Translations under genes and position numbers: made by a program
The notes under the pieces: generated by a model
The model's database searches: none
The model's input: the letters and a program-made list of their open reading frames with translations, nothing else
Told to the model about the DNA's origin: nothing
In this document: positions 1,291 through 32,459 of the stretch, one piece after another
Position numbering within the stretch: position 1 is the stretch's first letter
Layout: every line of letters begins with the position of its first letter
Source: Acidobacteriota bacterium
Lineage (GTDB): Bacteria; Acidobacteriota; UBA6911; RPQK01; JAJDTT01
NCBI GenBank assembly: GCA_965263035.1
Contig: OZ253580.1
Coordinates: 1,056,001-1,120,000 of the forward strand
Reading direction: 5' to 3'
Length of the DNA stretch: 64,000 nucleotides

Positions 1291-2556
1291 CTAGACCCGC
1301 TCGATCTTGACTTCCAACAGATAGATTCGGCTGCGCTCGCCGGAGTTGGGAGGAACCGGCTCCCAGCCGAAAGGAGTTCGGTCGTAAACCAGAAAAACCC
1401 GGTTCGGAGAGACCTCGATCACATCGATGTACGCTGATGTTTGCTTTGCATTCATCTGAAAGGAACTTGGAGCCGTCCGATTGTGATAAGCTATAAGGTC
1501 GACGGATTCCCACTTCTGGCCACGGGAATCTCCGGAAATCCACAGAAAGAGTCCCGGCCGACCCGTCACGAGCGTCAAAGCACCATTGGCCAGCCGAAGC
1601 AGTTGGGGGGCCACACTGTAAGCCGGCAGCCGGTCCACCCGGGACCAACTCTTTCCCCCGTCACCGCTGTAGGCGCGCGCCAACTTCTGGTCTTCTCCGG
1701 AACCGACTCGGCTCACACACATCAAGTCTCCGTCTGCCAAACGCACCAGGCAGGGCTCATCGAAGCCTTCTTTGGCATCGGGTACGGAGTCGGGTCCGGC
1801 GATTGTGGACAAATAGCGCCAGTGACGCCCTCCATCGTCCGAGGCCACTGCAACGGTGCCCCACCGAGCGTCTCCGTCGAACCGCACGGAGATCGTAGCG
1901 ACGTATTGGTCCAATTCCAAAATATCGCTGAACCAGTTAATTCGGGCCCACCAAGTGCGGCTCTCCTGGGACCAGGGTTCGACATCACGCGGCAGTCCTT
2001 CCACTACAGCCCCCCACGGCTCTACCATATAGCGCTTCCCTCCCCGATCGTACGTCCATCGGTGTGCGGAGAAGCGGCGGAACTGTCCGGCGGGATCAGG
2101 TTTCAAGTAGGTCGACGTACCGATGATCCGGCCATCGCGCAGACTGATCCTGGGCTCGCCGCAGCCGTTGTGAAATCCATTCACATCGTAAGCAAAATCA
2201 AAGTTCAGTCCCTCGTCCGTGGAAACGTGAACCGCCTGAGTGTTGGTGAGATTGATATTGACATCCGCGTTCAGGGAATGATTGAGCATCAACTCACCGG
2301 TCGAAAACTTCTCCAGGCTCGGATACCAGCAGTGCCCGGACGTCGTTTCGGCCACGACCCGAGGTTGACCCAGCCGCAGTCGGAAGTCTCTGATCCGGAT
2401 CTCCTCTCGCACCGTGGTGAAGCTCCTGGTTGAGGTCGCAGACAGCCCCGCGACGCCAAGGGCTGCCAGATGCCTCGATCCAACCTGAATGAATTCGCGC
2501 CGGTTAGACTGTTCTTCCAGATTTCTCCGATACCGGTCCTTCCTTGTAGAGTCCAC
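1291..2556 (-). CDS. Sialidase-like (BNR/Asp-box) beta-propeller protein, Tat-exported
   Basis: NRREFIQ twin-Arg signal; Asp boxes STDEGLNF, SDDGGRHW, SGDGGKSW; FDEP motif. Confidence 0.75.
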   Translation of the reverse strand: MDSTRKDRYRRNLEEQSNRREFIQVGSRHLAALGVAGLSATSTRSFTTVREEIRIRDFRLRLGQPRVVAETTSGHCWYPSLEKFSTGELMLNHSLNADVNINLTNTQAVHVSTDEGLNFDFAYDVNGFHNGCGEPRISLRDGRIIGTSTYLKPDPAGQFRRFSAHRWTYDRGGKRYMVEPWGAVVEGLPRDVEPWSQESRTWWARINWFSDILELDQYVATISVRFDGDARWGTVAVASDDGGRHWRYLSTIAGPDSVPDAKEGFDEPCLVRLADGDLMCVSRVGSGEDQKLARAYSGDGGKSWSRVDRLPAYSVAPQLLRLANGALTLVTGRPGLFLWISGDSRGQKWESVDLIAYHNRTAPSSFQMNAKQTSAYIDVIEVSPNRVFLVYDRTPFGWEPVPPNSGERSRIYLLEVKIERV

Positions 2557-2704
2557 GGTTCCCTCCTATACGAAATTACGAAATATTCAAAGGCTCTTTG
2601 ATCATTTCGAATCAACTGGTGTGGAATCCCCTTTTCGGCCCCAAATCGGTGGCCATCTCCTGAAACAGACGCACCCGAGGACCCTCACTCAATGTCCCTC
2701 CTGG

Positions 2705-3811
2705 TCAGCGAAGCCGGAAGTGGCAGTAACGGCTACCGTGGATGTCCTTCTCGTGACACCAGTACCCAACGAAAAAAGATCCGTCGGAAAAGGTCGCAAT
2801 TCTGGGCTCTCCGAAGGCAAAGTCGGCCCAGTACATGGCCTCCGTATCCTCGTCCTCCTCCCGGAAACCGGCGACTGCCCTCCAGAGGATGTCTTCGAAC
2901 TCGAGATGAAAACCCTTTTCGTCAGGACGGGCGATGGCAAACCCCACACCGGGAGGATTGCCGTACCGACGGTTGAAAGCACAGGCTACCCGGCCATCCT
3001 GGAGTGCGTGAACGGCAGTCGTCTGGCCGATCAGCCCGGTGGATCGATTGGAGCAGAAGCTCTTGCCCCCGTCCCGGGAAATACTGTATTGGACAGGCAG
3101 ATCTTCACCCGCTTCCATATCTCGAGCATAGGCAATGCCGAGGACCCCGCCATCGGCCATCTCTTCCACCCATACCTCCTGGTAGGCAATTTTCCCGGAA
3201 GGATCATCCATGAATTCGGCGTAATCGGGCCAACTCTCTCCCTGATCATGGCTTATCATGACGGCCGCTTTGCCCTGATTGTCGTTCGCGCCGGTGTGAT
3301 CCAACCAGGGTGCAAAAGGAGCCAGCCAGCCTCCTTGCCGGGTGGCACAAATCACTCCGCCCACTTCGGGAGGCTCGGGATAGCACATGGGAATGGACCG
3401 GATAGGACTCCAGCTGACACCCTGGTCATCTGAGACAGAGAAAATCAGCTCGGTGTGGGAAGCGCCCCCGGTCTCGCGATCATAGTAGGTCTCGCCGGCA
3501 GCGGGAGTGTCCCAGAGCATCCCTAATCCCAGCAACTTTCCGTTCTGGGTCCGGCTCACATTGAGCCGCCCGCTCTTCCCGGACGAACGCCAGTCCCACA
3601 TCGGGCCCTGATCTTGCCAACTGCTTCCCCAATCGTCAGAGCGGAAGATTCGGCTATAACTGCGCCCGGTTCCGATTTCGAGGTGGAACCCGACGGACGC
3701 AACCAAAGTGTCGTCCGCCAAGCGGACGATCTGGCAGTGCCTGGGATAGGCTCCGTTTTCGTCCGGCTGGCTCAAGAAATAGCCCTCTGAAAATATTTCA
3801 ACTCTCTTCAC
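2705..3811 (-). CDS. Sialidase-like (BNR/Asp-box) protein
   Basis: Asp boxes SDDWGSSW, SDDQGVSW, SHDQGESW, SRDGGKSF; start placed at GTG 3811 behind GGAGGG; no signal peptide seen. Confidence 0.75.
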   Translation of the reverse strand: MKRVEIFSEGYFLSQPDENGAYPRHCQIVRLADDTLVASVGFHLEIGTGRSYSRIFRSDDWGSSWQDQGPMWDWRSSGKSGRLNVSRTQNGKLLGLGMLWDTPAAGETYYDRETGGASHTELIFSVSDDQGVSWSPIRSIPMCYPEPPEVGGVICATRQGGWLAPFAPWLDHTGANDNQGKAAVMISHDQGESWPDYAEFMDDPSGKIAYQEVWVEEMADGGVLGIAYARDMEAGEDLPVQYSISRDGGKSFCSNRSTGLIGQTTAVHALQDGRVACAFNRRYGNPPGVGFAIARPDEKGFHLEFEDILWRAVAGFREEDEDTEAMYWADFAFGEPRIATFSDGSFFVGYWCHEKDIHGSRYCHFRLR

Positions 3812-3982
3812 CGGTCGCCCTCCACGACTACGTGACAATTAAAGTTAGGATATGGCCCGACGATCTGCGACGGCTCTTCACGCCGAACCCCGCGGATTCG
3901 CCGAGTCGCCCAGGCCGACCATTTGACGGTGCTTTAGTCGAACAAGCTGAGCGCCTTGCTTTCCCGAATACGTCTCTGTTCT

Positions 3983-8630: not shown

Positions 8631-11153
8631 TCAGAACGACATGAACTCGGAACCGGGAAACGGCTCGATCAAATCGTCGGCGGCGGGTTCCGCGTGGTGG
8701 ATCTGGAAGGCGTAAAGGTCTCCCTGCCGGAGATAGAACCGAAGGCGCACGGGACGGCCGGCCAATTCTCCCAGGTCTCTGCGATGCCTCCAACGAACCG
8801 GCTCTTGGACGCCGTCGAAGCTGGCGAGAACGCAGTCCGACTGACTGTAACCCTCAAGGGGATTTCCCTCGGCATCCAACACCTCCACCTTCAGATCTCC
8901 TTGAGGCACCTGGGCGTTGACCGTGAGGAGCCGGCCCTGGAAGACGAGCGGATGGGTGGTCAGGACCCCTATATCGCGGCCGGCTCTCCGGGAGACGAAA
9001 CCGTTGGTCCGGAATTCAGCCAGACCGGGCCAGATCCGGAAGTCGGGGCTTTTGGAAAGGAACGACTCGGGCGTCTCTCCGGTATTGGCGGTCAGATCCG
9101 CCCAGAAGCGGGTTCTGGCATCGTCTACCGTGCCATGAGTTCCCCGTCTCCAGCTCCAACCTGAGGGCATCAGGGACCAGGAGAAGCCTCTGGTCGAGGG
9201 CGGCGCCAGATAGGGACGTTCCACGAAAGTCTCGTCGGAAACGAGATCTTGTGCGTCCTTCCCCCCCATGCCGCTGTACAGGCCCGAGAGCTTCTCGCGA
9301 ACCCAGGCGTGGAAGTGGAGGTAGTTGGCTCCGTGATAGAAAATCCGGGTTCGCCCGCCCTGCCGGTGCCAGCCGGTGGGCATGTAGACGACGCCCCAGT
9401 CGAACGATCCCGGCGGGCCGTTGGCCAGCCATGCCTCTTCTCCGCCCGGCTGCTCCCAGTGGACGCCGTTGCGGCTCACCCAGAGCTGCAGATCCAGGTG
9501 CTGGGTGCGGACGTTGTAGCGGGGAAAGAACCCCAGGTACGAGTCTCCGCTCTTCCGGACACGGAAGCCGTAGTTGTGGAGGTTGGGATCGGAGACCTCG
9601 GGAACCCAGAGGTAACGGGCTTCCCAGTTGATGCCGTCCCGGGTGGCGTGGCGGGCCAGGGTCCGGGCCTTGGTGGAGTTGTCGTACCGGATCCGGCCCC
9701 GCCCGCGGTTGGGGGGACCCGGCGAAGTGTAGGCCACGAACTCTCCGGTAGCGCCGTCGTAGCCCATGGCCGCCGAGGTGTCGCCGGATACGGTCATGGT
9801 TTCGGTGCCACCCTGTCCCAAGCCGAACACGGGCGTGGGGCTGGTGACGTAGCTCTTCCCGTCCTGGTCCCAGACCACCAGATAGTAGCCGCGGCGGAGG
9901 GCCCAGCGATCACTGGTCTGCCGACCGGTGAAGAGCCACAGCCGGGCCCGGTGCAGGTCCGGATTCCCCCGGCGCGCGTAGTCCCAGACACCGGCGAAGA
10001 CGGGAAAGAGATCCCCCGGTTTGGTCACGTCCATCCGGGCCAGGATGTTGTTTGCTCGTGAGCCGTCGTGCTCCACCCTGCCCAGATCCGGCTTCGTCCA
10101 AGTGCGAAGGTCCTCGGAGACGGCCAGCATGTGATAGCGGAACTGGTCGTAGTTGACGTGGCGGTAGGTCAGCTCGTAACGATTCTCCTCGGGATTGTAG
10201 CGGGCCGAGTTGTCCAACAGGATGGAGTGGCCTTCATAGGACCGGTCGGGGGAGAGGATGGGCCCGTCCGTCACTTTTCGCGCCGGGTGAAACACTTTCC
10301 GGAGACCGCGCGACTCGGCGACCAGGTAGTCGTCCACGAGGAGTTGCGGTCCATCGCCGATCTTGGCCGCATCGCGCACGCGCGGCGCCGGTCCGTTTCG
10401 AAACAGTTGGAGGGTTCTGGCCACCCCGTCCGCCGACACCTCCCCCGCCCCCGGGAAACGGACACGGGCCTGGTAGGTTCCCGGCAGTAGATCCTCCAGG
10501 GAGAAGGTCACGCGGGTGTTGCGCCGGGTCAGTGACACCCGAACCGGTTCGGCGACCCGTTGACCGGTCAGAGGCTCGACCAGGTCCACCACCGCCGGAA
10601 GTTCGTCTGCCAGGGCGCCCGGGAGCAGCTTCAGGTCCAGACCGGCCTGCGCATCGTCGATGTAGAGAAGCCGATCCAGGTCGGCCCAGATCCATTCCTG
10701 GGGCGGAAGGCGAAACAGGGTCTGGAAGAGGATCTTTTCCGTAACCGGATCCCGGCCTGAGATCCTGAGCGTGTACTCCCCGGGATAAAACTGCCGGGGC
10801 CGATGCACCCAGGGACCGTGTCCCAGTAGCGGACCGAGGCCGAAACTCACCGGGCGGGGATCGCCGGAGGCCTCAAGGTACCGCTCCTGGCGAGTCGATC
10901 CTCCGTTGGGAAAGGTGAGGTCGGCGCGAATCAGGAGCGCCGGAGACGGACCCAGTTGGAATTGCACCGCGTGGTCCAGACCCCCGTCGAACGCCAGGGT
11001 GAAGCCGGAGACGATCTCTGAAGGTGGAGCCGCGCCCTCCACGTAGGAATCGAGTGGCACGCCGGCTTCGGCAGTCGATATGGCGAAAGCCCCAAGCATC
11101 AACGAGAATGTCGATACCAAGTTCGAAATCCCAAAGCCCGAAGAAATTCTCAT
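8631..11153 (-). CDS. Large secreted protein with putative 5-bladed beta-propeller glycosidase-like domain
   Basis: Signal peptide; motifs QLLVDDYLV, WTKPDLGRVEHDGSRANNIL, VSRNGVHW, LTTHPLVFQG; paralogous to 39243-41792. Confidence 0.6.
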   Translation of the reverse strand: MRISSGFGISNLVSTFSLMLGAFAISTAEAGVPLDSYVEGAAPPSEIVSGFTLAFDGGLDHAVQFQLGPSPALLIRADLTFPNGGSTRQERYLEASGDPRPVSFGLGPLLGHGPWVHRPRQFYPGEYTLRISGRDPVTEKILFQTLFRLPPQEWIWADLDRLLYIDDAQAGLDLKLLPGALADELPAVVDLVEPLTGQRVAEPVRVSLTRRNTRVTFSLEDLLPGTYQARVRFPGAGEVSADGVARTLQLFRNGPAPRVRDAAKIGDGPQLLVDDYLVAESRGLRKVFHPARKVTDGPILSPDRSYEGHSILLDNSARYNPEENRYELTYRHVNYDQFRYHMLAVSEDLRTWTKPDLGRVEHDGSRANNILARMDVTKPGDLFPVFAGVWDYARRGNPDLHRARLWLFTGRQTSDRWALRRGYYLVVWDQDGKSYVTSPTPVFGLGQGGTETMTVSGDTSAAMGYDGATGEFVAYTSPGPPNRGRGRIRYDNSTKARTLARHATRDGINWEARYLWVPEVSDPNLHNYGFRVRKSGDSYLGFFPRYNVRTQHLDLQLWVSRNGVHWEQPGGEEAWLANGPPGSFDWGVVYMPTGWHRQGGRTRIFYHGANYLHFHAWVREKLSGLYSGMGGKDAQDLVSDETFVERPYLAPPSTRGFSWSLMPSGWSWRRGTHGTVDDARTRFWADLTANTGETPESFLSKSPDFRIWPGLAEFRTNGFVSRRAGRDIGVLTTHPLVFQGRLLTVNAQVPQGDLKVEVLDAEGNPLEGYSQSDCVLASFDGVQEPVRWRHRRDLGELAGRPVRLRFYLRQGDLYAFQIHHAEPAADDLIEPFPGSEFMSF

Positions 11154-11281
11154 TATTCAAACCCCGATTTTCGATGCCAGTTTCCCGAATCCCCTGGTCC
11201 GCCGTCGCCACTGAAACCATTGAGCCGGTTACAATCCAGCGCGAGTTGTCCCGGATCAGGCACCAAACTACAATCCGGACC

Positions 11282-12442
11282 ATGCCAAGAGCAATCCTGG
11301 TACTCCTGACCATGATAGCCACCTGGGGTCATGCTGCTGCGGCAGTTGCACCCGAGCGCATCCACTACACCGGCAAGATCGGTCACATCGTCCAACTCCA
11401 GGACGGACGCCTGTTGACCCTCTACACGCTGGGAAGAGCAGGCGAGGACGGTTCGCTCAACGGACCCGAACAGCCGGCTTACGTTCGCTACTCCGGCGAC
11501 CAGGGACGAAATTGGTCGAAAGAGAAGATCGCTTTTTCATTCGCAGCCGGACGCGGGACGATGCCCACCTACAGGCAGTCGGCGGGTCCCTACCTTCTGC
11601 TGGACCGAAATGGAATCCTCCACCTGCTTTCCATCCGATACTATCGCGGCCCCAAACGAGGCGACCCGGCGGTGGTCGCGGTCTCAGAGCTTTTTCACAA
11701 CCTGTCACGCGACGGCGGCCAGACCTGGAACAAGCCGAAGAGGATCGACGTGGGCCATCACTGGTTTCCGCAAATCCAGTCCATGATCCAGCTTTCCAAT
11801 GGGCGTCTGCTGACCGCCGGAAACTATGCGAGCGACAACTACCTCTCTGACACGGGGGAATACGAGTATCGGATCATCGTGATTTTCTCGGATGACCAAG
11901 GTGAAACCTGGCAACTGGGACCGGACGACATCCGGATACCCATCGGTCCCTTCCGGGGGCATCCCGGCGCCATCGAGCCGGTCCTGGCCGAGCTGAGAGA
12001 CGGCCGGGTCTGGATGATCTTTCGCTCCCAGTACGGAGTCTTCTACCAGACCTTCTCGTCCGACGGCGGCAGCAACTGGGAACCCACATCGCCCACCACG
12101 ATCAAGGCGGCCAACGCACCCGCGGGAATATTGAGACTTGCGGACGGGAGGCTCATGCTCTCGTGGAACGATTGGGGCAACTACCCTGGTGGGCGGGTTC
12201 TGCGCCGGGGGCGACAATACCTTCACGTCGCGATTTCCAGCGATGACGGAAAGACCTGGAGTCCATCCAGACTGATCGCCGGACCCTCCACGCCTGATCC
12301 CGAAAACGCCCAGATGCGATACCCCTTCCTGTGCCGGACCAGCGACGGGTACGTGCTGCTCCGCTACCATCGCATCGAGCGAACCATCGGGATGAGTCGG
12401 CGTGATCTGCTCCGAATCGATCCCGACTGGATCGCCGAGTAG
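11282..12442 (+). CDS. Secreted sialidase-like (BNR/Asp-box) protein
   Basis: Signal peptide from ATG 11282; five Asp boxes (SGDQGRNW, SRDGGQTW, SDDQGETW, SSDGGSNW, SSDDGKTW); IEP and RYP motifs. Confidence 0.8.
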   Translation: MPRAILVLLTMIATWGHAAAAVAPERIHYTGKIGHIVQLQDGRLLTLYTLGRAGEDGSLNGPEQPAYVRYSGDQGRNWSKEKIAFSFAAGRGTMPTYRQSAGPYLLLDRNGILHLLSIRYYRGPKRGDPAVVAVSELFHNLSRDGGQTWNKPKRIDVGHHWFPQIQSMIQLSNGRLLTAGNYASDNYLSDTGEYEYRIIVIFSDDQGETWQLGPDDIRIPIGPFRGHPGAIEPVLAELRDGRVWMIFRSQYGVFYQTFSSDGGSNWEPTSPTTIKAANAPAGILRLADGRLMLSWNDWGNYPGGRVLRRGRQYLHVAISSDDGKTWSPSRLIAGPSTPDPENAQMRYPFLCRTSDGYVLLRYHRIERTIGMSRRDLLRIDPDWIAE

Positions 12443-12541: not shown

Positions 12542-13711
12542 ATGCAAGAAACAGCAGACGCGGTGGTAATCGGCGGTGGCATCATGGGAGCCAGCACGGC
12601 GCATTTCTTGGCCAAGAAGGGTGTCGGCAAGGTTGTATTGCTGGAGAAGCGGACTCTGGCTGCGGTGAGCACCGGCCATTCGGCGGCCAACATACGCTGT
12701 TCCTACTCCAATCCCGTCACCGTCCAACTCGCCTTGCGTTCCTTCGATATGTTCGAGAACGATCGTGAGGAAATGGGTGGAGACACCGGCTTCCGGCGAA
12801 CCGGCATGATTATCCTGCTCGAGAAAGAGCACGTCGCCGCCGGCAGAACGGTGCTTGAGTCCGAGAGAGAACACCACACCGAGACCCAGGAACTCGGACC
12901 GGACGAGATCAAGGAACTGGCACCCCAGTTCAACCTGGACGGAGTCGTCTGCGGAACGTACCAGCCGCGCGGCGGTTACGCGGACCCGGTACGGACCACA
13001 CGGACGCTGGTACGGGCGGCGGCAAAGTGGGGTCTGGTCGCGTACGAAGGTGTCAGCGCAAGGAGGATTCGAGTCGACGGCGACCGTGTCAGCGGTGTCG
13101 AGAGTGACCAAGGCGTCATTCAGACCGGGCTGGTGGTCAACGCCGCCGGACCCTGGGGGATCCACGTGGGGAGGTCAGCGGGCCGCCACTACTCCATTCG
13201 CTGGAGCCGGGAAGTCGATCTGGTCCTCCGGTTGCCGGAGGACTTCGGCCACTTTCCCATCATCGCCGATCCCGGGTGCCACATCTATTTTCGGCCTCAA
13301 CGGCAAGGGAAACTGCTGGCCGGCTTGGACTATCCCAAGGAAATCGAACCGCTGGACATCGACGACTACGATGCCAGCCTGGACGCCAACAGCCGCCGCC
13401 GAATCGAGCGGGGACTGTTCAGACGAATCCCGTCACTTCGAGACGCCGAGTTCGACCGCGGATGGGCGTCGATTTACACCATCACCGATGACTGGCATCC
13501 GGTGGTGGGTCCTGAGGGTGGCCCGGACGGCTACTATGCCTGTTTCGGCGGCAGCGGCCACGGATTCAAGTTGGGGCCACCCATCGGCGAGTCCTTGGCC
13601 AGCATCATGCTGGGCCAGGATCCCAGGATCGACCTCCACCCACTGCGGCCAAGCCGCTTCGAGGAGGGAGATACGTTCACTTCCGCGTGGGGCGCGGGAA
13701 ACCGGGCGTGA
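12542..13711 (+). CDS. FAD-dependent oxidoreductase (DAO/sarcosine oxidase beta-like)
   Basis: VIGGGIMG FAD-binding motif; VVNAAGPW; GGSGHGFKLGP. Confidence 0.9.
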   Translation: MQETADAVVIGGGIMGASTAHFLAKKGVGKVVLLEKRTLAAVSTGHSAANIRCSYSNPVTVQLALRSFDMFENDREEMGGDTGFRRTGMIILLEKEHVAAGRTVLESEREHHTETQELGPDEIKELAPQFNLDGVVCGTYQPRGGYADPVRTTRTLVRAAAKWGLVAYEGVSARRIRVDGDRVSGVESDQGVIQTGLVVNAAGPWGIHVGRSAGRHYSIRWSREVDLVLRLPEDFGHFPIIADPGCHIYFRPQRQGKLLAGLDYPKEIEPLDIDDYDASLDANSRRRIERGLFRRIPSLRDAEFDRGWASIYTITDDWHPVVGPEGGPDGYYACFGGSGHGFKLGPPIGESLASIMLGQDPRIDLHPLRPSRFEEGDTFTSAWGAGNRA

Positions 13712-13782
13712 CGCCGCAGCAAGCACCACCCCGAACGGTCCATTGGGGGCTTTCGCCCAGCGGCTATACTGGGGTCATGGGC

Positions 13783-15399
13783 ATGCGAAACCGGTTCGTC
13801 GTCACCACGTTCCTTCTGATTTGCCTGACTGCCGCTCAGGGCTGCACCGGGGAAACGCCCATCAGGCCGCCCAACATCGTCCTCATCCTGGCGGACGACA
13901 TGGGGTTTTCGGACCTGGGATGTTACGGAGGCGAAATCGAGACGCCCAACCTGGACGCGCTGGCCGCGGGGGGACTGCGCTTCACCCAGTTCTACAACAC
14001 GACCCGGTGTTGGCCCACAAGGGCGGCCCTCCTGACCGGATACTACGCCCAGCAGGTCCGGCGCGACGTGCTGCCCGGTCAATGCGGGGGCGGCGTCACC
14101 GTTCGTCCGGAGTGGGCCCGGTTGCTGCCGGACCTGCTGGGACCGGCAGGCTATCGCAGCTATCACAGCGGCAAGTGGCACATCGACGGCAAGGTGCTGG
14201 ACGGCGGCTTCCATCGCTCGTTGGACAGGAGGAACCAGGGCAACTTCTTCACCGCCGAGGGAAACTTCATTGACGACGCGCCGATCGAGCCGTCCGCGGA
14301 CGAGTCCGGATACTACGCCACCACCGCCACCGTCGACCACGCCCTCGACTGCCTCCGGGAGCATGCGGACGCCTATCCCGATCGGCCCTTCTTTCACTAC
14401 ATCGCGTTCATCGCGCCACACTTTCCCCTGCACGCTCTGCCTCAGGACATTGCACGCTACCGGGACCGGTACCTGGACGGCTGGGACGTCATGCGGCAAC
14501 GGCGTTACGCCCGGCAGCGGGAAATGGGGCTGGTCAATACGACCCTTTCGGAGCTTGAGCCCGAGGTCGGGCCCCCATATCACTTTTCCGTGGCCCTCAA
14601 GATACTGGGGCCCGGTGAAATCAACCGCCCGCTGCCGTGGAGCGAGCTGACGGAGGAGCAGCGGCGGTTCCAGGCGACGAAGATGGCGATCCACGCGGCG
14701 ATGGTGGATCGAATGGATCGTGAGATCGGCCGCGTTATCGAGCAACTCAAGGCCATGGGCGCTCTCCGGAACACGCTCATCTTCTTCGCCTCGGACAACG
14801 GCGCCAGTGCCGAGATCATGGTGCGCCACGGCGGTCATGACCCGGAGGCCCCTCCCGGCAGCGCGGCCACGTATCTCTGTCTCGGCCCCGGTTTCTCAAG
14901 CCCCTCCAACACGCCGTTTCGGCGTCACAAGACCTGGGTCCACGAAGGCGGCGTCAGCACTCCGCTGGTGGTGCATTGGCCCGAAGGGATTCGGGCCCGT
15001 GGCGAGCTCCGGCACACGCCGGGTCACGTGATCGACATCGTCCCCACCATCCTGGACGCCATCGGCATCGAGAAACCGGCGAGTTGGGGCGGCCAGCCTG
15101 TCCCCCAGGCTCCCGGCCGCAGCCTCCTGGGCGCGTTCGCCGAAGACCAGGTGATCGATCGCGAATTCCTCTGGTGGCTGCACGAGGGGAACCGAGCCGT
15201 TCGTACCGGCGATTGGAAGCTGGTCGCATCGAAGGGAGACCCGTGGGAGCTGTACGACCTGTCGACGGACCGTGCCGAATCACGAGACTTGGCACGGCTT
15301 CAACCGGACAGGGTCAAGGAACTGGAAGCGATCTGGCAGCGCGAGCTCGCCGCCATGAAACACCTCGCAGCCGAGGCTGCAGCAGACGAATCCAAGTGA
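13783..15399 (+). CDS. Arylsulfatase (formylglycine-dependent)
   Basis: PNIVLILADDMGFSDLG; CWPTRAALLTG (CxPxR); GKWH; APHFPLH; SDNG. Confidence 0.92.
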   Translation: MRNRFVVTTFLLICLTAAQGCTGETPIRPPNIVLILADDMGFSDLGCYGGEIETPNLDALAAGGLRFTQFYNTTRCWPTRAALLTGYYAQQVRRDVLPGQCGGGVTVRPEWARLLPDLLGPAGYRSYHSGKWHIDGKVLDGGFHRSLDRRNQGNFFTAEGNFIDDAPIEPSADESGYYATTATVDHALDCLREHADAYPDRPFFHYIAFIAPHFPLHALPQDIARYRDRYLDGWDVMRQRRYARQREMGLVNTTLSELEPEVGPPYHFSVALKILGPGEINRPLPWSELTEEQRRFQATKMAIHAAMVDRMDREIGRVIEQLKAMGALRNTLIFFASDNGASAEIMVRHGGHDPEAPPGSAATYLCLGPGFSSPSNTPFRRHKTWVHEGGVSTPLVVHWPEGIRARGELRHTPGHVIDIVPTILDAIGIEKPASWGGQPVPQAPGRSLLGAFAEDQVIDREFLWWLHEGNRAVRTGDWKLVASKGDPWELYDLSTDRAESRDLARLQPDRVKELEAIWQRELAAMKHLAAEAAADESK

Positions 15400-15504: not shown

Positions 15505-18387
15505 TCAGAAGAGACGGTCCTGCTGTCGTGATCTGGGTCGCCGACGCAATGGAGTTCGCGCCGATTGCAAGGTCTTGTTGAGGTTTTTCTTTTCGGTGTC
15601 GTTCAGTCGAGCTTCCAGGCGCACGGGGCGCCGTGCAACCAGATCCTCCAGCTCTACGACCCACTGTAAATCGGCCTTCTCTTCGCCCTCTGCCAGCCGA
15701 ATGGCCCGATTGAATTTTCCGGATTCCCGCCAGTTGTGCAACGCGTCTCCAGGGAGCCCCGCCCGCTCGAATTCTTCGGCGGCCTCGAGTCTCCGGCCCA
15801 CATTCTCCAAGATCGTTCCGGCCATCTGCGGATCGGGAGAGTCCACCCGTGACAGCACACGACCAGCTTCCCTCCACTTGCCCGCCGTCGCCAATACACC
15901 GATCGCCTGGTTGCGCAATACCTCCGCCTCGGCAGCCATGTCGCCCGTATAGCCGATCAGATCGAGCCAGACCTCAACCTCGCCCGAATAGCGAGCTGCC
16001 CACGCCGGCTCGGCAGCGCAGCGGCGCAACGCGCTCAAGAGGGACTGGAGCAGGATCGGCAGAGCCGACTGCAGCCACCTGCGATCGTGTGATTCCAAGG
16101 CGAGCGTCGCCCGGATCAAAGCGAACGGCGCCTTTGCCCTCCCTCGCGTCCAGTGATTGAAACTGGCAAACGCCTTTCTCTGTGCGTCGTTGCCCCACAC
16201 CGAGGCCACTTTCCTGGCCGTGTTGACGATCTGGTTCCGTTCCCCATGCCCCAATGCAGCATCGACCATCCTGCGTGCGGCTACCAGGAGCACACTCGTG
16301 CAAACTTCTTGTCGAATTGCCTCATCGGCTTCGAAAGCGCCCACTTCCGGCTCGCCGAGCAGCCGCAGGGCTTGGCAGGCTCGCTGCCAGGCCCGTGCAG
16401 GAACCGTGTCCACCAGTGCCAATGCGTCACGACTTCTGACCAGAATCCGCTCGTCAAGAGGTCGATCGACATCCAGGAAGAACTCCGTCAGATCCTCAGT
16501 CGTGAATTCCTCGGGACTTTTCAGCAGGTCCTTGCTGATTCGCTTCTCGCTATCGTCAGGCTGAACGTCGACGAACACCAGATTCTCCGTCGCACGACTT
16601 ACGGCCACGCGCAGGCCATCGATGGCCGTGCGCCTTGCCTGAATCTCCAGCGGACCGTGGTTTTCCGTGTCGTGGCGGAGTTGCTTGACGAGCTTCCCGA
16701 CGTCCAGCACGCAGACCGAACCGTACTCGAGCCCTTTAACGGACTCAGGTGTGTGTATCACGTCGCGATGCTGGTGAGGCACCCATTCGGGAATCGTTTC
16801 TTTTGGGCTGACCACTGCTACATCGGCGACATCGTCCAGCTTCTCCACCAAGGAGCCCGCGCTCTCCCGGTCCGGTACGGAGACGTAGATGAGCCGGGCG
16901 ATGATCTCTTCCTCGACTTGTCTGCTTTTCTGGTTCTTCGGACGCCAGTCCTTGTCGATCAGCCTGTAGAGATTCGATGCTCGTTCGATGACGTCGGAAA
17001 TCAGACTCGGACTCCGAACGTTGTGATCGAGAGGAATCTCCCGGGGTTTTGTGAGCGTGCCGTTCAGCAGGGAGTTGAGGCGATTCGGGTCGAATCCGGA
17101 GGGCCTGACGGTCTGACCGTCATCAAAGGCCATCAGTAGCCACGGGGCATGACTTCGATTCAACGCCAGATCGCGGCAATACTCCACGACCACCGCCGAC
17201 TCGAGCAGCGAAAGGTCTTGAACCTCGTCCACCACGACACGGTCGTATGTCTGCAAGCTCGCGGGCAGGTTGCCCGTCCGCACTCGCTCCAAAGCTGTTC
17301 GGGCGGCGGCCAGTTCAGGGAAAACCTTTTCGTACCATTCCCGCCACCGAGATCGGCTGATGATCGCCAGCAGTGCCCGGGCGGCCTCGCGTCCGACTTG
17401 GCTGTTCGCCATGTACTGCTCGTCGGACAGGCGCCTGCCGTCGGCGGCGCATTCCATGAGACCCGGTACGGCACGTCCGAACAGGACCGCTCGCAGTTCG
17501 GCGTGGAGCGCGTTCAGTTTGTCGTGCCAGGGACCGAGGTGGTCCCTCAGTTTCCACCAGGCGAAAGCTTGTCTGAATTTCTCGCGGCTCGAGGCAAGGG
17601 TGAGCCTTGAAATGTCGGTTCCGCACAGACTGCCGATGAAGACCCGGAACTCTCGGGCATCCACTTGCGATTCGGGCGACGAAAACGCCGAAAAACGAGA
17701 TCGAGTGTCATCGATCAATGCACTCGACCAGGTGAGGTAGAGTGTCTTGCCCCCGCGCGATTCGACTGCCTTCCACAAGGCCATCGTCTTACCCGACCCG
17801 GGGTAGCCGTGGACCACTCTCACGGGCTCCTCGTTCTGCATGAACTCTCGCTGTGCCTCGGTCCAGGGGCTCTCGAATGTCCCGTTGGAATCTCCCGCGA
17901 GTTCACCCGCCGACAGTCCGAAATACTCGTCAAGGTTGCCCGCTTTCAAGACCCTATGTTGGTCATGGTGGCGTACCGTTCGCAAGAGGATCGCGCCTCT
18001 CGCCAAGCCATCGATTCCCTTCGATTGCGGGCTACCCTGCGGTGTCCACCAGAGGTAGTAGTGCATTCCGCCTTGACCACCAAGCGGGGTCCGGCGCCAC
18101 CCCCGGTTCGCCGCGTCGCCGCAGCCCTTGACGATGGTGGTTCGACCCAAGGCGGCGAGTTGTTGGACAGCGATTGCGAGCCGCTTACTGATCGCCGGAC
18201 GGCCTTGAATGTCGGCGAGGACGCTGCCGTGCAACCGAATGCGGTCACGCAGGCCTGCTCCCCCTCGCGGCTGACCATTCGTAGCGATGTCCGGACGAAA
18301 CGCCACTCGACTCCATTGCCGCAGGTGCTCAAATTGCTGAAGATTTCCAGTCACGGGAACGACCTTCCTTTCAACTCTGCACACCAC
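15505..18387 (-). CDS. UvrD/SF1 helicase with RelE-like N-terminal domain and TPR-like C-terminus
   Basis: Walker A GYPGSGKT, Walker B VVVDEVQD, AFDDGQTV, HNVRS, VKGLEY, VAVSRATENL. The start may be GTG 18354, behind AGGAAGG. Confidence 0.8.
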   Translation of the reverse strand: MVCRVERKVVPVTGNLQQFEHLRQWSRVAFRPDIATNGQPRGGAGLRDRIRLHGSVLADIQGRPAISKRLAIAVQQLAALGRTTIVKGCGDAANRGWRRTPLGGQGGMHYYLWWTPQGSPQSKGIDGLARGAILLRTVRHHDQHRVLKAGNLDEYFGLSAGELAGDSNGTFESPWTEAQREFMQNEEPVRVVHGYPGSGKTMALWKAVESRGGKTLYLTWSSALIDDTRSRFSAFSSPESQVDAREFRVFIGSLCGTDISRLTLASSREKFRQAFAWWKLRDHLGPWHDKLNALHAELRAVLFGRAVPGLMECAADGRRLSDEQYMANSQVGREAARALLAIISRSRWREWYEKVFPELAAARTALERVRTGNLPASLQTYDRVVVDEVQDLSLLESAVVVEYCRDLALNRSHAPWLLMAFDDGQTVRPSGFDPNRLNSLLNGTLTKPREIPLDHNVRSPSLISDVIERASNLYRLIDKDWRPKNQKSRQVEEEIIARLIYVSVPDRESAGSLVEKLDDVADVAVVSPKETIPEWVPHQHRDVIHTPESVKGLEYGSVCVLDVGKLVKQLRHDTENHGPLEIQARRTAIDGLRVAVSRATENLVFVDVQPDDSEKRISKDLLKSPEEFTTEDLTEFFLDVDRPLDERILVRSRDALALVDTVPARAWQRACQALRLLGEPEVGAFEADEAIRQEVCTSVLLVAARRMVDAALGHGERNQIVNTARKVASVWGNDAQRKAFASFNHWTRGRAKAPFALIRATLALESHDRRWLQSALPILLQSLLSALRRCAAEPAWAARYSGEVEVWLDLIGYTGDMAAEAEVLRNQAIGVLATAGKWREAGRVLSRVDSPDPQMAGTILENVGRRLEAAEEFERAGLPGDALHNWRESGKFNRAIRLAEGEEKADLQWVVELEDLVARRPVRLEARLNDTEKKNLNKTLQSARTPLRRRPRSRQQDRLF

Positions 18388-18641
18388 TTCGATGGAGGAA
18401 TTATGGTGAAGACCACTGACTTGATCTCAGTGCTTACTCAAATGGACATAAAATGACGTTGTATGGCCATCTGTTCCCGCTTCAATGCCTTGGTGCGGCG
18501 TCTGACGAGTTTCGAGAGAGCGGCCCAGTGCGCCGGCTGAGGACAGGAAAAGGCTGGAAGCCTTCATGCGCCGTTGCGGAAGAAGCCCTGTCAAGCCGCC
18601 CTTGGCCTGAATGATCCTGTCCCGCTTGTAGCCGCATCACC

Positions 18642-20397
18642 TTATCGGCTTGGCACTTCTGAATCAGTCGCGGTCGCCGCGACTGCCACGGACGCCATGG
18701 CATCCAGCTTTGCGCCAATCTCCGAGTCGATCTCGGAATCGGGGATGTGTTCCACCAACTGGTAGAAGTTCCTCTTGGGCATCAGATTCGGCAGGTTCAG
18801 CTTTTTTGGGTAGTAGGCGCGGAACAGAGGGTCCAGGAAGTCATCGCTGGCCTTGATGTCGGGACTCCAAGGAGAGCCCTTTCCGAGTGTCTTCAGAGCC
18901 GACTGAATCTCCGCAATCGCTTCGCGCATAGCACCCAGACGCCGGTCGCACTCAACCGAAGTGAAAAGATTCTCCGGTTCCGCCTCCCTTGCCGATGCTG
19001 TTGCAAACGCTTCCAGCGCAGCTCGCGAGCAGACGTAGTTCTCGATTTCTCGACGCTTCCAGACCAGGCACTCGACCGGGTCGATGCCCTGCGGTTCATT
19101 TTCAACGTGATCGAAGAGAACGACTCCATGCAGCGACGGGAGTGCCTCTCTCAGGCCATGAAAGTGTCTTCGAACCTCTCGGGCATTGTTCCCCACGTAG
19201 CGTACGAACGGTCGCTCCAGCACTCGAAGCGCGGATTCATGACCCAGTCGCCTGGCAAATGCCTGCAACATCGACAGGTCCGTCGACCCTTCAAGGTAGA
19301 GCACCCACCCCGTCTGCTCCGCTTGCTAATATTGCTCGAGCCCAATCTCTTTTAGCGCTTTCAACACCTGACTGTGGTGGTCGTCAATACGGTGAGGCGG
19401 GCCGACGAACGCTATGACGACGTCTCGACCCGCCGCCTCGTTGAGCAGTACTTCGGAATGGCTGGCGGCGATAATTTGACTGCCGCTCTGGTTGGCCACA
19501 TCGGTGAGCAGTCGGTAGATCTGACGCTGGCGCAGGATCTCCAAGTGTGCATCAGGCTCCTCCAGGAGCAGAACTGAACCAGGATTCGCGTACATGTACG
19601 CCAAGAGAAGAAGCGTCTGTTGGAGACCCCTCCCGGCTGATGACAGGTCAAGCTTGACCCCCCGTTCTCCATAGGTCATCACGATCTCGCCACGCTCGGG
19701 GATATAGCGTGGCGGATGCAACTCAGACCCGAACAAATTTTCGATCTGCTCTACCAGACTGGTCCACCGTAACGGCCGTTCTTCGTGGATCCGAAAACAG
19801 AGATTGCGCAATACTTCGACGGTACGTCCCTCTCCTATACGCACACTGACGGCACCGTAATCCAGACGTGTTTCCGTGGCCGCCAAACCCGACATCGGTG
19901 GCAGAAACGCGATCCGGGCTCTTCCCGCTTCGTCCGGCACCGGCATTCGGTCGGGGGTCTTGCCTTCGGACGAACGAAGCGGCCGACAATAGAGGGATTC
20001 TTCATTGGCATAGTCGAACTCCAGTCCGCAGACCCAGTGCCGGTCGTTGGCCACTCCCTCGACGATGAGATCGATACGGATGTTACTTGTGCGGAGCCGG
20101 CCGTCCTCCTTATCGTACGTCTCGCACGCGCAAACCGAGCCAAAGAAGGTTTGCCTCCGGAACAGGAATTGCAACGAGGTCCCTGCGGTTGACTGTTACT
20201 CCAGGGCGCTTTTCGGGGGTTCTTTTGCCGGATCGCTTCTCGTTCCAGCGCCTGAGCCCAATGTGCCAGAGCGCGAGAGCCTGTATTGCCGATGTTTTCC
20301 CGGAATTGTTGGGACCGATAAAGACAACCGGATTCCCGAGTTCGATCTCGACATCCTCAAATCGCTTGAAGTTGCGTATGGTCAGCTTGGTCAACAT
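18642..20397 (-). pseudogene. OLD-family ABC ATPase-TOPRIM nuclease, disrupted by a frameshift near 20112 and a TAG at 19326-19328
   Basis: Three ORF pieces join into one protein: IRNFKRF...GPNNSGKT; LSSAGRGLQQ, LLLEEPDAHL, ASHS; then TOPRIM YLEGSTD and REIENY. Pieces 2 and 3 are in frame across the TAG. Confidence 0.85.
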
Positions 20398-20525: not shown

Positions 20526-21713
20526 TCAGAAGCCTCGGGCCGGAACCATTTCGTAGACACTCTGGTGGTTCACGATCACAGCCTCTTCGAATCCTCCCCG
20601 GTGAATGACGAGGCGGTGGCGCAGATCCAGGGGCTGGCCGCGGGGAAGATCCACCGGGTGACGGCCCGGAAAGGCGACGTTCTGCATCCCGTAGTGGCGC
20701 AGGAGCCATCTTGGCGGGAACTCGGGATAACTGGGATGGGTCAGCATTCCAACACCCGAAATCATGCCGCCCTGCCCGAACGTCCCGCTGTAGTCGGCCC
20801 AGGGGCTGGACTCTCCGACCCGGTCCTCTTTCTGGATTCCCGACAGGTCATGGATGCGACCGTCCGGGGAGGCCTGGACGCGGACCGTGAAGCCGGAATA
20901 TCCCCGCGGATTCTCCGAACCACCGATTCGGATTCCATCCACGAGGGCTCGGAGCCGGATGTGGAAATCGATGACCTGAGAGTCTGGAGTGGAACGGAAG
21001 ACCTGGATCCGGACCCGCTCCCGCACCAGCGGTAACAATTCGCCGGCGCCGTCCTTCTGCAGAGGAGAGGTCCAGAGTGCGGACGCCTCCAGAACGGAGA
21101 ACAGAGGACCGTCGTGGACTCGGACGTTCTCCACCTCGGTCAGGAAGTCCTCCGTCAGCCACGGGTCGCCGGCCCGTTCGTCGCCGACCCAGAGTTGGTG
21201 CCAGGCCCAGAAGATTCCCCGGTGATGAAAATGGTCCTCAGGAAAGTCATGGGTCAGCACCCGTCCATCGAGGCCGTACAGGGGATGAACGTAACCGGCT
21301 CGCGTGTATCGCCCGTCAAGAGATCGGGGCGCCGACTGGTAGAAGAATACGGGGCGCTCTCCCTCGGAGACGAGATATCCCTGGGCATCCGCGGTGACTT
21401 GGAACGCCCCCTCCACGACTTCCGGCTCCGTCTTCACCGAGTGAACACCGGCCGCCGGCAGATCGCCCATCAGCCACAGAATCCCAGTCTCGGGATCCAA
21501 CTGGGCCAGGTTCCCGTTTCGGTTGGCGGACAGTACGGCAAAGACCCGACCCTGGGGCACCCGGCCCTCGAAGGTCGCCGCCACCGGCGAGGACCAGCCT
21601 TCGGGAATTCCGGGGGGTATGCGCACTGTGGCGCCTGAAGGAAGCTCCTGCCCCGACCCCGCGCAACCGGCCAACGGCCAGAGCAGGATGGCCAGTCCGG
21701 CCACCCGGTTCAC
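20526..21713 (-). CDS. DUF6807/PmoA-like family lipoprotein
   Basis: Lipobox LAGC; RAGYVHPLYGLDG and DFPEDHFHHRGIFWAW signature; start uncertain. Confidence 0.7.
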   Translation of the reverse strand: MNRVAGLAILLWPLAGCAGSGQELPSGATVRIPPGIPEGWSSPVAATFEGRVPQGRVFAVLSANRNGNLAQLDPETGILWLMGDLPAAGVHSVKTEPEVVEGAFQVTADAQGYLVSEGERPVFFYQSAPRSLDGRYTRAGYVHPLYGLDGRVLTHDFPEDHFHHRGIFWAWHQLWVGDERAGDPWLTEDFLTEVENVRVHDGPLFSVLEASALWTSPLQKDGAGELLPLVRERVRIQVFRSTPDSQVIDFHIRLRALVDGIRIGGSENPRGYSGFTVRVQASPDGRIHDLSGIQKEDRVGESSPWADYSGTFGQGGMISGVGMLTHPSYPEFPPRWLLRHYGMQNVAFPGRHPVDLPRGQPLDLRHRLVIHRGGFEEAVIVNHQSVYEMVPARGF

Positions 21714-21888
21714 ACTCTGTCTCAGACTCTCGAATCCGCTCACGACGATTCCCACGGTAACGGCCCCGGACTGCGGCGGCAAGACAGGCCCTCACACTTC
21801 CATAAGAATCTTCTCCTCTGAGAGAATAGGTGGCCTCAAACGTCGTCGGAATATCAACCGAAATGTCCCTGGAGAAGAGATCGATAGC

Positions 21889-30998: not shown

Positions 30999-32459
30999 AT
31001 GCCGGAAAAACGGCCCAACGTGCTGCTCATCTGCGCGGACCGCTGGTCCGGACTCTTCACTCGTCCGGCCGGACATCCGGTGGTGATGACTCCCACGATC
31101 GCCCAGATGGCCCGCAACGGCGTCCACTTCGACCGTGCCTACTCCGCCTGTCCCATCTGTATTCCCGCACGTCGAAGCTTGATGACGGGCCTTTCGCCGC
31201 GAAACCACGGGGACCGGGTCTTCAACGAGTATTTGGAGATGCCGGACCCGGAAGAGGTTCCGACGCTCCCCGGGCTCTTCCGGGAGGCCGGTTATCAAGC
31301 TCATGCCGTCGGCAAGCTCCATGTCTATCCCCAGCGCGACCGCATCGGCTTCGACGAAGTGATCCTCAACGAGGAAGGGCGGCATCACCTCGATAACGGG
31401 TACGCCGACGACTGGGAGCTCTACCTGGCCGATCAGGGCTATCCGGGACAGGAGTACGCCGGCGGCCTCAGCAACAACGACTACCTCACCCGGTCCTGGC
31501 ACTTGCCCGACCATTGTCACCCCACCAACTGGGCGGCGGCGCAGATGTGCCGCACCATCCGGCGCCGCGATCACCGGAAGCCCGGTTTCTGGTACCTCTC
31601 CTTCGTGGGACCGCACCCACCGGTCTGGCCGCCGGCCGCGTATCTCGATCTCTACCGCAATCTGGAACTCGACCCCATGGTCTGCGGCGACTGGTCCCAA
31701 TCGTTCGAAGACCTGCCCTACAGCGTCAAGCCGTACATGGACCAATTCTGCATGCGCATGGCCATTCCAGGCGAGATCGACCGGGCGAGAAGGGCTTTCT
31801 ACGCCACCATCACCCACATCGATCACCAGATCCGGATGGTTCTGGGAACGCTGCGTGAAGAGGGGCTGTCGGAGAACACCATCGTCGCCTTCACGGCGGA
31901 TCACGGCGACATGCTGGGAGACCACCAGATGTGGGCCAAGGGGGTCATGTACGAGAAGTCCGCCCGGGTGCCCCTCATCATCGTGCCGGCGGCGGGTGAC
32001 GTCCGGTTTCGCCCCGGCAGTCGCGACCATCGGCTGGCGGAGCTTCGAGACCTGATGCCGACGCTGCTGGACCTTTGCGGCCTCGAGCCTCCCGGCTCCC
32101 TCGACGGAATCTCTCTGGCCGGCGAAGCGGACCGCGACCATCTCTACGGCGAGTTTCGGGAGGGTCCGGCATCCACCCGCATGATCCGCGACCGGCGCCA
32201 CAAACTCATCTACTACCCGGTCGGCAACGTCTTCCAACTGTTCGATCTGGACCAGGACCCCCTGGAACAACGAAATCTGGCTGGAAATGCCTCCCTGCGG
32301 GAGGTACAGGATCGTCTGGTGCGGCTGCTGGTGGACCACCTCTACGGCTCGGACCTCGAGTGGGTCCGGGAGGGCCGTCTCGTGGGGCTGCCGGACCGGG
32401 AATACGTCCCCACGGCGGACCGGGGCCTGGGCGCCCAGAGAGGCTGGCGGTTTCTTTGA
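30999..32459 (+). CDS. Sulfatase (choline-sulfatase/arylsulfatase-like), no signal peptide
   Basis: PNVLLICADRW; CIPARRSLMTG; VGKLH; PHPP; TADHGDMLGDH. Confidence 0.9.
   Translation: MPEKRPNVLLICADRWSGLFTRPAGHPVVMTPTIAQMARNGVHFDRAYSACPICIPARRSLMTGLSPRNHGDRVFNEYLEMPDPEEVPTLPGLFREAGYQAHAVGKLHVYPQRDRIGFDEVILNEEGRHHLDNGYADDWELYLADQGYPGQEYAGGLSNNDYLTRSWHLPDHCHPTNWAAAQMCRTIRRRDHRKPGFWYLSFVGPHPPVWPPAAYLDLYRNLELDPMVCGDWSQSFEDLPYSVKPYMDQFCMRMAIPGEIDRARRAFYATITHIDHQIRMVLGTLREEGLSENTIVAFTADHGDMLGDHQMWAKGVMYEKSARVPLIIVPAAGDVRFRPGSRDHRLAELRDLMPTLLDLCGLEPPGSLDGISLAGEADRDHLYGEFREGPASTRMIRDRRHKLIYYPVGNVFQLFDLDQDPLEQRNLAGNASLREVQDRLVRLLVDHLYGSDLEWVREGRLVGLPDREYVPTADRGLGAQRGWRFL

Follow-up and report, generated by a model that had tools for sequence, protein, structure and literature searches.

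The stretch of DNA analysed here, 64,000 nucleotides from contig OZ253580.1 of an Acidobacteriota bacterium (the window), contains two co-oriented genes on the minus strand at 15505–20397: one codes for an OLD-like ATPase, the other for a superfamily 1 (SF1) helicase. An earlier note, made from the sequence alone, had proposed that both genes form a Gabija-like defence system. We consider that they are probably two separate accessory genes which share a spot, not one Gabija-type system, and we propose that the helicase would be a conflict or defence protein which stands alone. The ATPase gene has decayed; it belongs to a highly conserved family of OLD-like ABC ATPases with a TOPRIM region, which is very common. 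The helicase gene is intact and codes for a single chain of about 950 amino acids, with a RelE/ParE fold, an SF1 core and helical repeats, which belongs to an unnamed family; we infer its enzymatic activity, its trigger and its role in defence. The two genes and the gap between them are located as follows:

15505–18354, minus strand: helicase gene, intact, 949 amino acids; the open reading frame (ORF) extends to a GTG at 18387, which gives 960 amino acids

18355–18641, minus strand: intergenic gap, from the stop codon of the ATPase gene to the probable start of the helicase gene, 287 bp (254 bp counted from the start of the ORF)

18642–20397, minus strand: ATPase pseudogene, OLD-like ABC ATPase with a TOPRIM-related C-terminal domain, in three ORF pieces

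The ORF list of the window confirms the position and common orientation of the genes, which do lie among metabolic genes, as the earlier note said; its gap of about 250 bp is the one counted from the start of the ORF. The GTG at 18354 is the likely helicase start according to an alignment with 22 relatives, and the 949 amino acid form has an exact match in the protein collection.

Outside the closest relatives, the helicase is found without the ATPase. An alignment scan with the helicase family, limited to one genome per species, gave 34 loci. Family members are present in 15 of them (14 whole genes and one, L003, cut by the end of its contig), and the remaining 19 contain unrelated SF1 helicases, with 19–29% identity. 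The ATPase does not appear beside the helicase relatives of other species in any of the 15 family loci, within about 10 kb; at least 4.9 kb of upstream sequence is available in 14 of these loci. A tblastn search of the 34 loci with P0121, the closest intact relative of the ATPase (583 amino acids, 96% identical), did not detect the ATPase in any of them: only the window was matched. When all six-frame ORFs of the loci were searched with an unfiltered hidden Markov model of the ATPase family, the best score was 16 bits, in L007, at a distance of 6.5 kb. Clustering of the neighbouring genes in the 15 loci and the window did not detect any family common to more than three loci. Since the helicase relatives in other species stand alone, a Gabija-type pair is improbable. 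The earlier note had considered that helicase homologs lacking an OLD neighbour would refute a pair. Such homologs are what we find outside the clade of the window (0/15), but within the clade the pair persists together. Because the homologs outside the clade have no OLD neighbour, we favour the fallback which that note had also offered, independent neighbours.

The Gabija models of PADLOC only give short matches. The GajA model scores at most 52 bits on P0121, P0422 and P0199, and is limited to residues about 1–43 and 272–321, which contain Walker A and Walker B; the same pattern is found in the pieces of the window ATPase. The top models on the intact ATPase orthologs are ATPase-only ones (NsnB with 85 bits, AriA with 83 bits). 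The GajB model scores 17.3 bits on the window helicase and no more than 21.7 bits on its relatives, always over short stretches, and Nhi scores 18.6 bits. A Gabija system would have two intact genes in a conserved OLD-helicase tandem. Here the ATPase is broken, and the tandem is conserved within the clade of the window but not outside it. In view of these low scores (52 bits or less for GajA, 22 or less for GajB), of the loci of other species and of the broken ATPase, the Gabija-like system of the earlier note is not supported.

Three regions can be distinguished in the helicase. Residues are numbered on the 960 amino acid ORF, and the family alignment contains 23 sequences:

17893–18270, minus strand: N-terminal RelE/ParE-fold domain, residues about 40–165, from a separate model and Foldseek

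16468–17865, minus strand: SF1 helicase/ATPase core, residues about 175–640, from motifs and Foldseek

15556–16458, minus strand: C-terminal all-helical repeat region, TPR-like, residues about 644–944, from the model

The AlphaFold2 (AF2) model of the whole protein has a mean pLDDT of 80.7. None of the SF1 motifs (I, Ia, II, III, V and VI) varies among the aligned members: Walker A at G194–T201, Ia at Y217/W220/S221, II at D387-E388-x-Q390-D391, III at D422-G424-Q-T-V, V at K551-G-L-E-Y, and VI at R593/S597-R598-A599-x-E601. Foldseek matches the core to HelD (8qn8_H, E 1.1e-9) and UvrD (4c2t_D, E 2e-9, target-normalised TM score 0.44). The core fold matches include HelD, UvrD, PcrA, Rep and FBH1, with E-values from 1e-9 to 1e-7, and GajB (8tk1_F) ranks 35. 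The only Pfam match of the helicase is Viral_helicase1, which is marginal (22.1 bits, with a cut-off of 21). As modelled, the core is an SF1 helicase with two RecA-like domains, whose predicted fold is nearest to UvrD/HelD. The complete set of SF1 motifs described in the earlier note is thus borne out by both the alignment and the fold.

The N-terminal domain, of about 130 residues, was modelled alone from 14 sequences (pLDDT 82.2). In this model the order of the elements is that of the RelE/ParE fold: a strand, two helices and three strands. When compared with the PDB, Foldseek finds RelE/ParE/YoeB/YafQ/HigB-type toxins in 38 of the 39 rows listed, with target-normalised TM scores of 0.40–0.74, probabilities up to 0.99 and E-values of 0.03–0.5. 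The RelE-like domain which the earlier note had assigned to this end of the protein is recovered in this way. Residues R136 and R139-H140-H141-D142-x-H144, which end the last strand, are invariant. In RelE-type RNases the catalytic residues are located in that part of the fold, and the R-x-x-R-H-H-D-x-H run appears to coincide with the RelE catalytic region. A cognate antitoxin gene was not found beside the helicase: there is no conserved neighbour in the 15 loci and the window.

The C-terminal 300 residues only contain helices in the AF2 model, as an alpha-solenoid. Among PDB sequences, the family profile is only weakly similar to the TPR regions of intraflagellar-transport proteins (best E 5.2e-5), and it has one match to FBH1. 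Pfam does not detect any TPR in the window helicase; canonical TPRs are found in its relatives, as added C-terminal arrays. The TPR C-terminus suggested by the earlier note is supported as an all-helical repeat region, with canonical TPRs in relatives, but the window protein itself is only weakly TPR-like.

The helicase family search detected 157 proteins, most of them with 940–1140 amino acids, called "hypothetical" where they have a name. A profile of the N-terminal domain finds 423 clusters (at 50% identity) with E-values up to 1e-3, and 350 with E-values up to 1e-10. Among the 150 clusters listed, 93 have more than 800 amino acids. The domain is always near the N-terminus, and the short entries are mostly fragment-like. 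Most members come from Acidobacteriota, and some are found on Rhodothermus plasmids. The C-termini are variable: canonical TPR arrays are present in P0258, P0321 and P0341, an FGE-sulfatase domain plus TPR in P0316, and phage-type zinc fingers in P0102 and P0313. Five members (P0049, P0052, P0058, P0092 and P0104) have an extra N-terminal segment of about 60–90 amino acids with a conserved KTIxQLARxL...VSxAARxVLG motif. This motif resembles a helix-turn-helix. In Pfam, only HTH_29 is weakly matched, in P0049 (E 0.25). A NUDIX fusion was considered and dropped, as the "NUDIX" proteins of 212–221 amino acids which clustered with helicase P0040 do not align to it.

Mobile or defence genes are frequent around these helicases. 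A gene for a transposase, integrase, toxin-antitoxin, restriction-modification, Cas or DruA-domain protein is found within 6.5 kb in nine of the 14 whole-gene loci (L001, L002, L004, L005, L006, L009, L012, L014 and L020). The copy in plasmid pRMAR01 of Rhodothermus marinus DSM 4252 (36% identical, E 4e-131) has TOTE, CARF-HEPN, RecQ-family and TnpB genes as neighbours. A distant relative in a Picosynechococcus plasmid is found after DUF1156/DUF499 genes and before a PIN/HicB pair. No match to the helicase was detected in the phage collection. In L001, the Bryobacterales helicase is flanked by two DruA-domain proteins (2427–3506 and 15815–18190), one of them fused to a transposase DNA-binding domain. 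A sulfatase gene adjoins the helicase in this locus, as in the window, but on the opposite side. The helicase homologs in L006 (9581–13096) and L020 (10201–12697) are split into three or four ORFs, which may be pseudogenes or the result of frameshift errors in the assembly. In pRMAR01 (L037, 9055–12018), the annotated coding region begins inside the RelE-like domain. The tblastn match starts at record position 57578, 54 bases upstream of the annotated 57632, so the deposited start is probably too far downstream.

A mechanism may be suggested for this protein. The variable C-terminal repeats would recognize the trigger, or would lock the protein in an inactive state. The motor of the helicase would act on nucleic acid and link the use of ATP to activation. 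The RelE-like domain would then cleave RNA or stop translation, which would lead to cell arrest. The earlier note had given the helicase its own toxin and sensor. This is still the best hypothesis for the helicase alone, with a conjectural mechanism, but not as part of a Gabija-like pair. A bolder proposal may also be made, which we regard as possible but rather doubtful. In this view, the family would consist of single-chain immune receptors of an undescribed kind: an SF1 helicase would occupy the position of the STAND NTPase of Avs proteins, with a RelE-fold RNase effector on one side and swappable sensors (TPR, FGE-sulfatase, zinc finger) on the other. In the clade of the window, it would have acquired the highly conserved OLD-like ATPase as a partner specific to this lineage, and a Gabija-like system would have arisen independently.

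Several observations weigh against two separate genes and a stand-alone defence protein. In the clade of the window, whose helicases are 82–99% identical, the ATPase and the helicase are found together on nine contigs under 100 kb (5554, 11716, 14309, 16508, 17659, 21508, 25590, 52388 and 62246 bp). Contigs with an identical size in bp have been taken as the same contig, a proxy of our own. The smallest one, with 5,554 bp, has a helicase of 947 amino acids and an ATPase of 583. Because of these nine shared contigs, we accept that the pair has been kept together in the clade, where several ATPases are intact. By the same size proxy, P0048, a helicase less closely related (47% identical), is found on a contig of 59,343 bp with ATPase P0225. 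Two clade contigs have a fragmented helicase together with an ATPase of 427 or 577 amino acids, so the helicase is not always maintained. Both genes of the window have a metabolic neighbourhood. An OLD gene followed by a co-oriented UvrD-like helicase gene is formally the context which defines class 2 OLD (PMC10568477). The count of mobile and defence genes in nine of 14 loci stands without a background rate. Finally, the E-values of the toxin-fold matches are weak, none of them 1e-3 or lower. Residues 40–165 do not correspond to any Pfam or NCBIfam family, and an Atlas feature search with the N-terminal domain reached a best score of 0.87 without any named family.

We read the pairing as synteny inherited within a single clade, where each gene may decay independently. 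The main alternative is that the two genes do form a Gabija-like system, present in this clade alone, whose copy in the window has been recently inactivated; we consider it unlikely. The co-oriented order, first the OLD gene and then the helicase gene, and the nine small contigs agree with it. So does the G+C content at third codon positions (GC3): it is 0.70 and 0.66 in the two genes, lower than in the adjacent sulfatase gene (0.81) and in most other genes of the window. This alternative does not fit the absence of the ATPase in all 15 loci of other species, and it would join families of very different size: all 8000 scored candidates of the ATPase family search pass an E-value of 0.001, compared with 157 proteins for the helicase. 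The GajA and GajB profile matches are confined to the P-loop, the gap has 287 bp, and either gene may be broken while the other one is whole. Synteny among such close relatives may be inherited without a functional link.

It is quite improbable that the helicase is a housekeeping nucleic-acid factor, such as a HelD-like RNA polymerase recycling factor or a ribosome-associated RNA helicase, in which the RelE-fold domain would only be a docking module. Mycobacterial HelD bound to RNA polymerase is among the best core fold matches (8qn8_H and 6yxu_H), and conservation in the family is strong along the whole protein, with a mean column identity of 44%. On the other hand, the neighbours of the helicase are not conserved, its genomic context changes and some copies are found in plasmids. 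The gene is split in L006, in L020 and on the two clade contigs, the C-terminal modules are swappable, and the His/Arg/Asp cluster of the RelE-like domain is invariant. A stand-alone conflict protein remains our preferred reading of the helicase.

The ATPase gene is read in three pieces, with 95, 282 and 220 amino acids. Its lesions and its TOPRIM-related part are:

20110–20112, minus strand: TAA from a one-base insertion (extra base 20112), +1 frameshift after codon 95

19326–19328, minus strand: in-frame TAG at about residue 357, a Tyr in P0121, P0124 and P0199

18984–19313, minus strand: TOPRIM-related stretch, with motifs LYLEGSTD, LFDHVEN and RREIENY

The first piece (20397–20110, 95 amino acids) is terminated by the TAA. 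In a tblastn comparison with P0121, residues 1–95 correspond to 20397–20113 and residues 96–583 to 20111–18645. Since the frame changes between 20113 and 20111, one extra base at 20112 shifts it and creates the TAA. At the TAG site, P0121, P0124 and P0199 have EQYYQAEQ or DQYYQAEQ. Intact relatives have 577–584 amino acids. Because of the frameshift and the nonsense codon, we read this gene from its sequence as a pseudogene, which would be non-functional here. We take this as real decay rather than sequencing error, which is possible for individual entries.

Different stages of breakage are found among the relatives. P0121, P0419, P0420, P0422 and P0425 are intact close relatives. The out-of-frame leader of the window gene recurs in P0409, P0410, P0411 and P0426. 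The frameshift after codon 95 is the only break in P0409 and P0411 (510 amino acids); P0426, with P0404, has a second break near residue 460. P0415, with P0405, has a sole break near residue 360. The exact pieces of 282 and 220 amino acids are present in the protein collection, on two contigs each. A programmed frameshift at the TAA was considered and rejected, in view of the second, unrelated nonsense lesion and of the other lesions in relatives. It is very improbable that the ATPase is actually intact and that both breaks come from errors of sequencing or assembly. Many of the related records do come from metagenome-assembled genomes, and several clade contigs have split genes for one protein or the other, but the frameshifted leader is shared by four other database proteins and the exact broken pieces recur, one lesion is a base substitution to TAG, the frameshift is outside any homopolymer run, and no other window gene looked broken (no systematic check).

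The ATPase has the N-terminal ABC-type ATPase feature of OLD family nucleases. In Pfam, only AAA_15 and AAA_21 are found (in P0121, AAA_21 with 3.5e-21 and AAA_15 with 1.8e-20). Its top match among PDB sequences is the class 1 OLD protein of Thermus scotoductus (6p74_A, E 7.4e-9), which covers the ATPase part only. The C-terminal piece of 220 amino acids does not show any direct match in Pfam, NCBIfam or PADLOC, even at E-values up to 10. The connection with TOPRIM comes from a Natrinema intermediate, from shared motifs and from an Atlas lead. Residues 249–471 of P0121 match an OLD-family protein of Natrinema by BLASTP (E 3e-13), whose residues 369–433 correspond to Pfam OLD-like_TOPRIM (29.1 bits, with a cut-off of 23.2). 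In this alignment LYLEGSTD is opposite IYVEGPSD, and both proteins have RREIENY. The Atlas feature search gave 0.93 for DUF4435 and 0.90 for OLD-like_TOPRIM in the C-terminal region, which we take as a lead only. Judging from pairwise alignment only, the metal-site Glu falls in "LEG" of P0121, opposite "VEG" of the Natrinema protein, and the DxD position (D-S-D in Natrinema) is not kept: it is D-H-V-E, D-R-L-E and D-R-R-D in P0121, P0124 and P0199. By these comparisons the predicted TOPRIM motifs appear to be real but divergent. An OLD ATPase with TOPRIM motifs, as the earlier note described it, is supported by both the Thermus match and the Natrinema intermediate.

The 120 listed relatives of the ATPase are 72–96% identical over about 580 amino acids, and their source names are Acidobacteria and Aminicenantes. 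So little variation is unusual in a presumed defence gene, and it suggests that such OLD-like ATPases may have a role which is housekeeping or under strong constraint. In archaea, a role in the cell cycle has been reported for an OLD-family ATPase (PMC12796447). A search for longer, fused forms of the ATPase did not find any, which is weak evidence. Distant relatives, about 26% identical, are found in a Nostoc plasmid (L035, 5001–6878) and in a Natrinema plasmid (L036, 3248–4903). They are located in or beside BREX loci: the first one between pglX and pglZ, the second one adjoining BREX-5 pglZ.

At lower coordinates, both genes are flanked by a sulfatase gene (13687–15399) and an FAD oxidoreductase gene. 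At higher coordinates there are genes for a DUF6807 protein (20526–21782), a GFO/IDH/MocA oxidoreductase and an aminotransferase. In the intergenic gap, a scan for sigma-70-like promoters and terminator-like sites did not detect any, although such a scan is uninformative for this kind of organism. We have not detected any flanking repeats which might mark the boundary of an island, and there are no tRNA genes in the window, so tRNAs do not define such a boundary. Three BNR/sialidase-like repeat proteins are found at 1291–3838 and 11024–12442. Together with two sulfatases (13687–15399 and 30999–32459) and a sodium:solute symporter fusion, they suggest a glycan-degrading neighbourhood.

In summary, an OLD gene adjoining a UvrD-like helicase gene is insufficient to call a class 2 OLD or a Gabija system. 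The unnamed family, with 423 clusters at 50% identity, is worth following: it combines a RelE/ParE-fold domain, an SF1 helicase and variable repeat modules. If it is indeed a stand-alone defence protein, it would show that a toxin aimed at translation can be controlled by a helicase motor on the same chain. The pRMAR01 copy, in a cultured Rhodothermus marinus strain, would be a tractable starting point.

Comparison with known systems shows partial similarities in each case. Gabija, with GajA (a class 2 OLD nuclease) and GajB (a UvrD-like helicase), also has an ABC-ATPase/TOPRIM gene followed by a co-oriented SF1 helicase gene. GajB is among the core fold matches, but this similarity is generic to UvrD-type helicases. 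Unlike GajB, the helicase described here has about 950 amino acids, with extra domains at each end, and it is separated from the ATPase by 287 bp. Class 2 OLD proteins have a helical insert in the Toprim domain, and GajA and GajB form a 4:4 complex (PMC10568477). The class 1 OLD of Thermus scotoductus (6P74) is similar in length (528 amino acids, about 580 here) and in having an ABC ATPase followed by a TOPRIM-type C-terminus. It differs in that the match is limited to the ATPase part, TOPRIM is only seen through an intermediate and DxD is altered. As for PARIS, AriA models are among the top PADLOC scores on the intact ATPase orthologs (77–83 bits), and the fused AriAB model aligns over residues 273–456, which reach the TOPRIM-related part. 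However, these scores are far below those of full-length members, and there is no separate AriB gene.

Fusions of a RelE fold with a helicase appear in only two places in the literature we found: CoCoNuT CnuH and one Tiamat neighbourhood. The main text of a 2025 survey of multidomain RelE/ParE toxins (PMC11980606) does not contain the words "helicase", "UvrD" or "TPR"; the supplements of this and the other papers cited may list the family. In CnuH (Type II/III-A), which belongs to a predicted conflict system, the SF1 helicase is preceded by a RelE-fold "RNase toxin-like" domain (PMC11090510). The same source gives it an Upf1-like helicase, an SmpB-like OB domain and McrBC-type operons, unlike the UvrD/HelD-like core found here, and none of the 144 neighbour ORFs scanned in the helicase loci is of the McrB/McrC type. 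In Tiamat "Type I-K" neighbourhoods, a helicase with an N-terminal RelE-like domain is found beside a defence ATPase (bioRxiv 10.64898/2026.09.30.754977). It shares the two-domain RelE-helicase idea with our protein, and might belong to the same family. No Tiamat-like or methyltransferase partner is conserved beside the window helicase family.

The last comparison is with the Avs/STAND antiviral receptors, which have an N-terminal effector, a central NTPase and a variable C-terminal repeat sensor. The helicase family shows the same logic, with variable C-termini (TPR, FGE-sulfatase). Its NTPase is an SF1 helicase instead of a STAND ATPase, so this likeness is an analogy, not membership.

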